Below, piece after piece: positions 59,690-60,037 of a stretch of 64,000 nt of DNA; within the stretch, counting starts at the first letter, position 1, and each line of letters begins with the position of its first letter. The stretch lies in assembly GCF_058153355.1 (NCBI RefSeq), contig NZ_CM177019.1. One strand, written 5' to 3'. The notes below the pieces were generated by a model. It was given only the letters and a program-made list of their open reading frames with translations. It had not been told where the DNA came from and did no database searches. A program made the position numbers and the translations under genes.

Positions 59690-60037
59690 GTGTATCAATA
59701 TTTATACTCAATCACATCAGAATTCAATATAGCAAAAGAAAATGTGCAATTAATTGAGGTAAGCCAAAAAACCTCCCTTCAACTTTCAAGTGCTACCAGC
59801 CATGAACACAGTGATGCAAACATTCAAATAAGATCTCTTATTGAAAAATACAGCAGTGAATTGGAAAAAGTGTCAGGAGCAAAAGAAATTCATGAAGAAT
59901 TGATAATTGCCGTGCCGAGCAGAGAAAATGAATTCCGGAAACTTTCTCTTGAGCAAGATAAAAGACATATTAAGATAGATGAAAAAATAAAAACACTGAT
60001 TAGGATTGGTAATAAAAATATTACAATAAGGCAATGA
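59690..60037 (+). CDS. Hypothetical protein, strongly AT-rich gene
   Basis: 115-aa ORF in a conspicuously AT-rich stretch; no recognisable motifs. Confidence 0.4.
   Translation: MYQYLYSITSEFNIAKENVQLIEVSQKTSLQLSSATSHEHSDANIQIRSLIEKYSSELEKVSGAKEIHEELIIAVPSRENEFRKLSLEQDKRHIKIDEKIKTLIRIGNKNITIRQ

Follow-up and report, generated by a model that had tools for sequence, protein, structure and literature searches.

VspR (VC0177), encoded in the VSP-1 island of Vibrio cholerae, is a transcription factor that ChIP places at the CBASS locus and in whose absence CBASS transcripts rise (PMC10653837, citing Davies et al. 2012). GInt elements carry the ginABCD operon as their signature (Bardaji et al. 2017, PMC5385486) and have already been noted as defense-carrying elements in E. 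coli (Hochhauser et al. 2023, PMC10121019). In the GInt/Tn6571 family a single operon encodes two clear-cut tyrosine recombinases, a more divergent third and a small protein of ~145 aa, and cargo that often consists of defense genes comes directly after the fourth gene. Imperfect direct repeats at the flanks (attL/attR), an AT-rich 3′ end and excision as a circle are further traits of GInts. PadR regulators, including AphA of V. cholerae, are built like MecI/BlaI, in that a winged helix at the N-terminus precedes a helical dimerization domain at the C-terminus. Compared with these systems, the 115-codon open reading frame (ORF) described here is very probably a non-functional remnant of a VspR-family regulator gene on a decayed GInt island.

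The ORF lies in a stretch of 64,000 nucleotides (the window; NCBI RefSeq assembly GCF_058153355.1, contig NZ_CM177019.1). In the open reading frame list of the window it spans 59690-60037 on the plus strand and starts with GTG. A first-pass annotation, made from the sequence of the window, had described it as a very AT-rich orphan ORF in horizontally acquired DNA, without an assignable function. The coordinates and the composition given there are right: the GC content of the ORF is 31.9% (GC3 25%), against a window mean of 48.8%, and the ORF sits inside a GC trough of ~30-33% that extends from about 59400 to 60100. The GC analysis that the annotation had proposed places the ORF among the most AT-rich 0.55% of 348-bp windows in a composition scan of the 64 kb. 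Two further patches, at 27500-27950 and 35550-36650, are equally AT-rich (348-bp windows, GC 0.30-0.36). Horizontal acquisition is also borne out, as the ORF is located at the left end of a GInt-type island found in a minority of E. coli genomes. It is not an orphan: it represents the 3′ 62% of a conserved gene with 88 homologous protein clusters.

A spurious chance frame in AT-rich intergenic DNA would account for the base composition, the few coding signals and the unusual GTG start. It would also fit the scans of Pfam (a release without PF27213/PF27192), NCBIfam and PHROGs, which gave no match beyond chance level (IFT57, MRP-S28) for either the ORF or its intact parent. ORFs of at least 115 codons are nonetheless rare in such DNA, arising in 0.55% of 2000 composition-preserving shuffles of 59400-60200, so that a chance origin is unlikely on length. 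Homology refutes this reading outright: along its entire length the ORF shares 91% identity with the C-terminal part of a conserved protein whose intact genes are under purifying selection (dN/dS 0.25, L003 versus L004; L numbers designate the comparison loci). We therefore rejected the chance frame and give it virtually no weight.

The ORF aligns to residues 71-185 alone of its ~185-aa parent, and comparison with intact copies locates the two lesions that produced the fragment. The window region was compared by megablast with 5426 complete E. coli genomes, of which 200-265 contain it. In 179 of these genomes the match to 59560-59860 is split by ~620 bp of extra DNA; together with the matching flank, this DNA encodes a ~107-110-aa HTH gene on the minus strand and, divergent from it on the plus strand, a 185-186-aa gene annotated as a "hypothetical protein." Aligned with L002 by blastn, the window is without exactly L002 5226-5845 (~620 bp). 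The resulting features are as follows.

59623/59624, no strand assigned: deletion junction with 1-nt microhomology, from blastn against L002
59625-59660, plus strand: codons 49-60 of the vspR-like gene (FAYNQIQYLVKK), in a different frame from the remaining codons
59690-60037, plus strand: the ORF, which corresponds to vspR-like codons 71-185, with its GTG being the internal codon for Val71

The ~620-bp deletion removed the 5′ part of a gene for a ParS_C domain, the whole gene of an Xre-type partner, the operator/promoter region and the first 48 codons of the vspR-like gene; its junction was found in 0 of the 5426 complete E. coli genomes. The second lesion is a 1-bp deletion between 59660 and 59661, where a G is missing after an A7 run and the frame shifts at codon 61, so that codons 49-60 now lie in another frame. 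From the homology and these lesions it follows that the GTG "start" is an internal Val71 codon. The native start codon, ribosome binding site and promoter region of the vspR-like gene are absent from the window, and no Shine-Dalgarno sequence was found at a proper distance before the GTG. The exact 115-aa product also occurs in E. coli GCA_015332025.1, where it is annotated (E0V34_18110, "hypothetical protein"), and in two sequencing runs, and one of those assemblies equals the window over 5.8 kb. GCA_015332025.1 and SRR31441161 represent this lineage. The presence of the same product in three independent assemblies argues against the lesions being sequencing errors.

Of the parent protein, the ORF still encodes one half of the wing, then a short helix, the linker and the hairpin of C-terminal helices. 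We also characterized the intact parent. Its 88 homologous clusters contain full-length proteins typically of 182-187 aa from Escherichia, Salmonella, Citrobacter, Enterobacter, Klebsiella, Raoultella, Leclercia, Pectobacterium and Scandinavium, among others, and the gene is also present on 64 enterobacterial plasmids, most of them conjugative. Intact E. coli forms of the protein include WP_087053282.1 and WP_001463402.1, and strain SWHEFF_68 (NZ_CP055022) has an intact island. Members of this enterobacterial clade are annotated merely as "hypothetical protein" in the sources. A profile search of PDB sequences returned nothing relevant. The intact protein was modeled by AF2 with a diverse alignment (mean pLDDT 87.8). 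The model is composed of a winged helix (residues 8-86), a disordered linker (98-107) and a pair of long helices (108-144 and 146-183), which run antiparallel after a turn at a nearly invariant proline. The winged helix comprises helices 8-19, 26-37 and 43-59, wing strands 63-67 and 74-78, and a short helix, 80-86. The C-terminal two-helix hairpin in the model probably mediates dimerization. In the window copy, this C-terminal helical domain is kept, as model residues 108-183 (pLDDT about 95) all fall in 59690-60037, while the three N-terminal helices, together with the first wing strand, have been lost or lie in another frame. Since the ORF starts at codon 71, it is without all three winged-helix helices, including the recognition helix. 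Unlike VspR, the window copy lacks the whole VspR_N part and is predicted from its sequence to be incapable of binding DNA.

The best structural matches to the model are PadR (6jyi and 5x11), MecI/BlaI (1sd7) and AphA (1yg2), at weak Foldseek E values (best 5.6e-3), and further matches are the bare winged helices AspA and F93. Unlike the C-terminal domains of PadR and MecI/BlaI, that of the VspR-like protein is a simple two-helix hairpin after a disordered linker. Membership in the PadR family was rejected, as the resemblance is in fold alone: the best match to PF03551 was E 0.063, in 1 of 28 members, which is not significant.

The family assignment comes from profile comparison. Searched against 1.8 billion representative proteins, the enterobacterial profile gave just 48 matches, among them full-length proteins of 170-190 aa at E 1e-14 to 1e-4. 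Precomputed Pfam labels for VspR_N (PF27213) and VspR_C (PF27192) are carried by several of these proteins and by further relatives in Photobacterium, Thaumasiovibrio, Pseudoalteromonas and Vibrio cholerae; within the enterobacterial clade a precomputed VspR label is found in P0034 alone (VspR_N). Proteins labeled VspR_N/VspR_C were matched by hmmsearch over positions 4-182 (E 4e-7 to 6e-5), and hhalign aligned the enterobacterial profile with the VspR-labeled marine proteins at a probability of 99.1% (E 4.8e-19, 179 columns), giving end-to-end profile homology. Against the V. cholerae VspR_N/VspR_C protein that adjoins capV-dncV-cap2-cap3, hhalign returned a probability of 91.5% (E 8.8e-7). 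A profile scan of genomes for the VspR-like gene yielded 18 marine loci, none of them from V. cholerae, and the V. cholerae relatives were reached via the Xre partner. The enterobacterial protein and VspR itself are alike in length class (170-190 aa) and in their two-domain plan, and the enterobacterial clade is ~20-27% identical to the Vibrio/Photobacterium proteins. That the intact parent is a distant member of the VspR family is thus well supported by sequence, if indirectly, the comparison having been made with Pfam-labeled relatives. The earlier view that no function can be assigned is right only in part: the intact parent is a VspR-family winged-helix regulator, and the window copy is a truncated and frameshifted pseudogene. 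Occurrences of "VSPR" in the E. coli and Klebsiella literature are unrelated and refer to very-short-patch repair in PADLOC.

In the intact relatives, the VspR-like gene (~185 aa) is part of a cassette in which it is transcribed divergently from a gene for an Xre-type HTH protein of ~105-110 aa. This Xre partner lies upstream, in divergent orientation, in 24 of 28 loci and is marked by the motif NPIPxRLKEAR…RMNHYEKGRH…PLNYFFC; it falls into more than 1000 protein clusters. The E. coli and V. cholerae partners are 63% identical, making this protein far better conserved than the VspR-like protein itself. Two palindromes of 15 bp each, CTTAGATTGTCTAAG and CTTAGCAATCCTAAG, lie in the ~100-bp intergenic region at a spacing of exactly 34 bp; their positions in L003 are as follows.

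L003 9468-9482: first palindrome, between the divergent Xre and VspR-like genes
L003 9502-9516: second palindrome, between the same two genes

The palindrome pair is also found in L002, L004, L008-L016, L019-L021, L028-L032, L036 and L038-L043. It is almost invariant across E. coli, Pectobacterium, Photobacterium, Pseudoalteromonas and V. cholerae, is better conserved than the VspR-like coding sequence, and is essentially confined to this intergenic region within loci of 15-18 kb. The palindromes are missing in L018, L023, L026 and L034, where the upstream ORF is not the conserved Xre protein. They are also missing in L027, which has no recognized Xre partner and contains a 107-aa ORF as a candidate partner. 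Because the palindromes are absent where the upstream ORF differs, the Xre protein is the putative binder of the palindromes, a role suggested by this co-occurrence.

The divergent Xre partner and twin palindromes are thus common to the V. cholerae and enterobacterial loci, and the mobility genes beside them differ. The enterobacterial cassette is tied to GInt recombinase operons, with ginABCD directly adjoining the cassette in all intact enterobacterial loci examined, and the V. cholerae one, like that of some marine bacteria, to Tn7-like modules. Genes for TnsA, TnsB and TniB are found beside the cassette in L038-L043 (V. cholerae), L016 and L018, where the cargo is either type I restriction-modification (R-M) or capV-dncV-cap2-cap3 CBASS. 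Since the cassette lies beside the mobility genes of both, it is common to two unrelated types of island, GInt and Tn7-like. The cargo of these mobile islands is alike in serving defense, being CBASS or type I R-M in V. cholerae and type I R-M in the GInts of E. coli. The available sections of PMC5385486 and PMC10121019 contain no mention of a conserved Xre/VspR cassette beside ginD. The arrangement varies in two further respects: in L012/L013 (Scandinavium, 8393-10540) the ParS_C-Xre-VspR-like module is inverted with respect to the gin operon, relative to the E. coli/Enterobacter islands, and in Photobacterium L032 the Xre gene is upstream of ginA and in the same direction.

In the mechanism we propose for the intact cassette, the Xre protein would bind the palindromes and set the expression of both divergent genes, and the VspR-like protein would repress neighboring island or cargo genes. 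For E. coli, such repression of neighboring island genes is inferred by analogy with V. cholerae VspR.

The intact islands resemble the GInt/Tn6571 family closely. Their gin operon encodes two Phage_integrase proteins (E 6.7e-7 and 1.9e-10), a larger third protein with a weak match (0.023) and a ~145-aa protein. As in GInts, the cargo begins directly after ginD: the region after its stop codon varies between islands, with a hairpin segment swapped and ParS_C either present or absent. Beyond this point lies further variable cargo that includes type I R-M, an LRR/ankyrin region and IS elements. The island is inserted between the hipBA/autotransporter region and a fimbrial operon; in the window, lsrK (54447-56039) is followed by an ECSE_1600-type autotransporter pseudogene, as part of an E. 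coli chromosome. The right end of the island is beyond the window, since the fimbrial genes come only after 64000. Around the ORF, the window retains the following pieces.

58626-58802, plus strand: hipA 3′ remnant, homologous to the end of the hipA gene annotated in L004 (2739-2915); it contains an ORF at 58635-58802
58915-59381, plus strand: ginD-like remnant, 96% identical over 139 aa to L003 ginD
59495-59623, minus strand: 3′ end of the 64-aa ParS_C (DUF2384) gene, of which 42 codons and the stop are left, interrupted by an internal stop
60118-60239, plus strand: end of the stretch colinear with the intact islands; homology to L003/L004 stops at 60239
62057-62234, minus strand: second Xre-partner remnant, approximately codons 1-48 plus 32 bp of divergent intergenic DNA

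The hipBA genes are intact in the related strains L001, L004 and L037. In the window, hipB and most of hipA are missing, and the last ~177 bp of hipA is joined to the truncated autotransporter (58626-58932). Inside the autotransporter pseudogene, the segment 57230-58271 is an exact tandem duplication (period 521 bp) that gives duplicated ORFs; a 300-nt reference copy matches with 100% identity at both 57230 and 57751. The N-terminus of ginD has been replaced through a ginABC deletion, and the remnant carries an in-frame nonsense codon at 59251-59253 ('EVSEL*DQLAQ'). The 64-kb window contains no ginA, ginB or ginC. It therefore differs from GInts in having a ginD pseudogene only, and because this pseudogene alone is left, the element can no longer move.

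The Xre partner and both palindromes beside the ORF are likewise deleted, and the complete CTTAG-N5-CTAAG palindrome has 0 matches in the 64-kb window. The second Xre remnant is located 2 kb to the right of the ORF. It is a 178-bp segment overlapping an ORF at 62023-62202, with 92.7-97.8% identity to L003 9296-9473 and L004 9300-9477, and it breaks off inside the first palindrome, after …GCTTAGA. Rearrangement of a single cassette was considered for it and could not explain 62057-62234; the remnant suggests two cassettes, or else tandem or composite islands.

Between these remnants, the minus strand at 60610-61812 encodes a 400-aa protein with LPX-type leucine-rich repeats, like the LRR domain of the type III effectors SspH2/SlrP. 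No E3-ligase (NEL) domain was detected in this protein, and its repeat number differs by strain, with lengths of 400, 417, 525 and 568 aa. Farther on, a 129-aa ORF at 62395-62784 has no family match; in L005-L007 and L037 an ankyrin-repeat protein of 651 aa comes after it. The LRR and ankyrin-repeat genes look like eukaryote-directed island cargo.

The ParS_C remnant on the opposite strand raises a further reading, in which the ORF would be the toxin or partner of this adjacent ParS/Xre (DUF2384) antitoxin-domain gene in a type II toxin-antitoxin system. An Xre_MbcA_ParS_C gene does adjoin the cassette in L012/L013 and in L001, where the C-terminal domain protein is intact (PF09722, E 9.7e-11). 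However, ParS_C is missing or decayed in many cassettes that are themselves intact (L003, L004, L008 and L014), whereas the Xre partner is nearly constant, and neither the window nor the intact loci contain a RES-domain or other toxin gene. Prediction, moreover, makes the 185-aa protein a DNA-binding winged-helix protein rather than an enzyme, and the ParS_C gene of the window is itself truncated with a stop. An Xre/MbcA/ParS-RES system was thus rejected, as only a truncated ParS_C remnant and no RES toxin are present, and a toxin-antitoxin role for the ORF is highly improbable.

The ORF had also been described as bracketed by three strong orphan hairpins typical of acquired DNA. All three are present, within a few bases of the positions first given.

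59452-59480, no strand assigned: hairpin 1, a 12-bp perfect stem (z −4.6 on the plus strand, −5.0 on the minus strand), previously placed at 59447-59472
59544-59584, no strand assigned: hairpin 2, imperfect, inside the ParS_C remnant (z −2.5 on the plus strand, −2.3 on the minus strand), previously placed at ~59553-59590
60078-60105, no strand assigned: core of hairpin 3, which has an 8-bp G+C core and extends over 60066-60117, previously placed at 60079-60106

The first and third hairpins exceed chance, and the second is marginal. None is an orphan: the first lies between convergent genes, the second inside the ParS_C remnant and the third downstream of the gene in all intact loci. Hairpin 59452-59480 separates the convergent ginD and ParS_C genes and is likely to be a bidirectional terminator. 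L001 and L002 share it, and its place in L003 and L004 is filled by an unrelated hairpin, as expected of a terminator. The stem-loop at 60078-60105 is positioned ~40 nt past the stop codon and is kept in all intact loci; L008, L011 and L012 retain a stem-loop there with a different sequence. The extended structure (60066-60117) reaches −22.2 kcal/mol on the plus strand (z −5.7) and −29.7 kcal/mol on the minus strand (z −5.3). On the minus strand, where a U tract follows, it is a canonical intrinsic terminator; the tail on the plus strand is poor. This stem-loop probably shields the gene from antisense cargo read-through and ends the gene's own transcript. Rfam scans found no RNA family, giving sub-threshold miRNA-hairpin matches to the terminator only.

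Taken as a sequence of events, the present state of the window copy is explained by one deletion that took codons 1-48 along with the promoter, the two palindromes and the Xre gene, and then by a 1-bp deletion that shifted the frame at codon 61. The open remainder is codons 71-185, behind an internal GTG and lacking a proper ribosome binding site or promoter. Other lineages carry other truncations. About codons 110-185 are left in L001 (strain 2013C-4282), where the neighboring ParS_C gene is whole, and about codons 138-185 in L037 (strain 2020CK-00188); many fragments of the protein, of 95-127 aa, are on record. The deletions in L001 and the window overlap, but their endpoints are not nested, and they are therefore independent events.

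The recurrence of N-terminally truncated copies in several lineages might indicate that the ORF encodes a functional stand-alone helical-hairpin dimerization domain, which could act, for example, as a dominant negative that titrates the VspR-like regulators of incoming islands. That 115 codons have stayed open in very AT-rich DNA, a length matched by so few of the shuffles, and that the encoded part is a complete and confidently predicted helical hairpin, would also agree with such a role. Yet the truncations end at different points (codons 48, ~110 and ~138), as expected from random erosion and not from a selected product. The native promoter, operators, start codon and ribosome binding site have been deleted, the GTG is an internal Val codon without a properly spaced Shine-Dalgarno sequence, and the neighboring island genes are all dead as well. 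Substitutions point the same way. Clade-invariant residues have been replaced, with Y138H and N171K falling in columns invariant in the enterobacterial clade and N167D in a nearly invariant column, and non-synonymous changes are in excess. Compared with its closest intact relative, the remnant has nine non-synonymous and four synonymous changes (dN/dS 0.55), and compared with the L001 remnant, five and zero; the contrast in dN/dS between remnant and intact genes is based on a small number of substitutions and falls short of statistical significance. We consider a stand-alone function unlikely in the extreme and retain the non-functional remnant as the preferred reading. The remnant is presumably not expressed, though read-through from the hipA and ginD remnants could transcribe the ORF, and a GTG-initiated product may result.

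Two more speculative roles have been considered, together with very little probability. The remnant hairpin might serve as a decoy partner for VspR-like repressors, or repeated loss of the cassette might have been selected to unlock or fix the LRR/ankyrin cargo. If the decoy were real, the hairpin domain would be made from read-through transcripts and would target the repressors of incoming GInt or Tn7-like islands. Under selection, the three different cassette deletions in E. coli lineages would not be neutral decay.

For the window itself the ORF is of little importance beyond showing the degree of decay of its island, and the annotation is corrected accordingly, E0V34_18110 being a pseudogene fragment. 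The part worth following is the conserved Xre/VspR cassette of the intact relatives. An enterobacterial protein family that had no annotation is now tied to VspR, and its gene belongs to a fixed cassette together with an Xre regulator and two invariant palindromes. Adjoining mobility genes in defense-carrying islands, this cassette is a testable candidate for the control of cargo or mobility.
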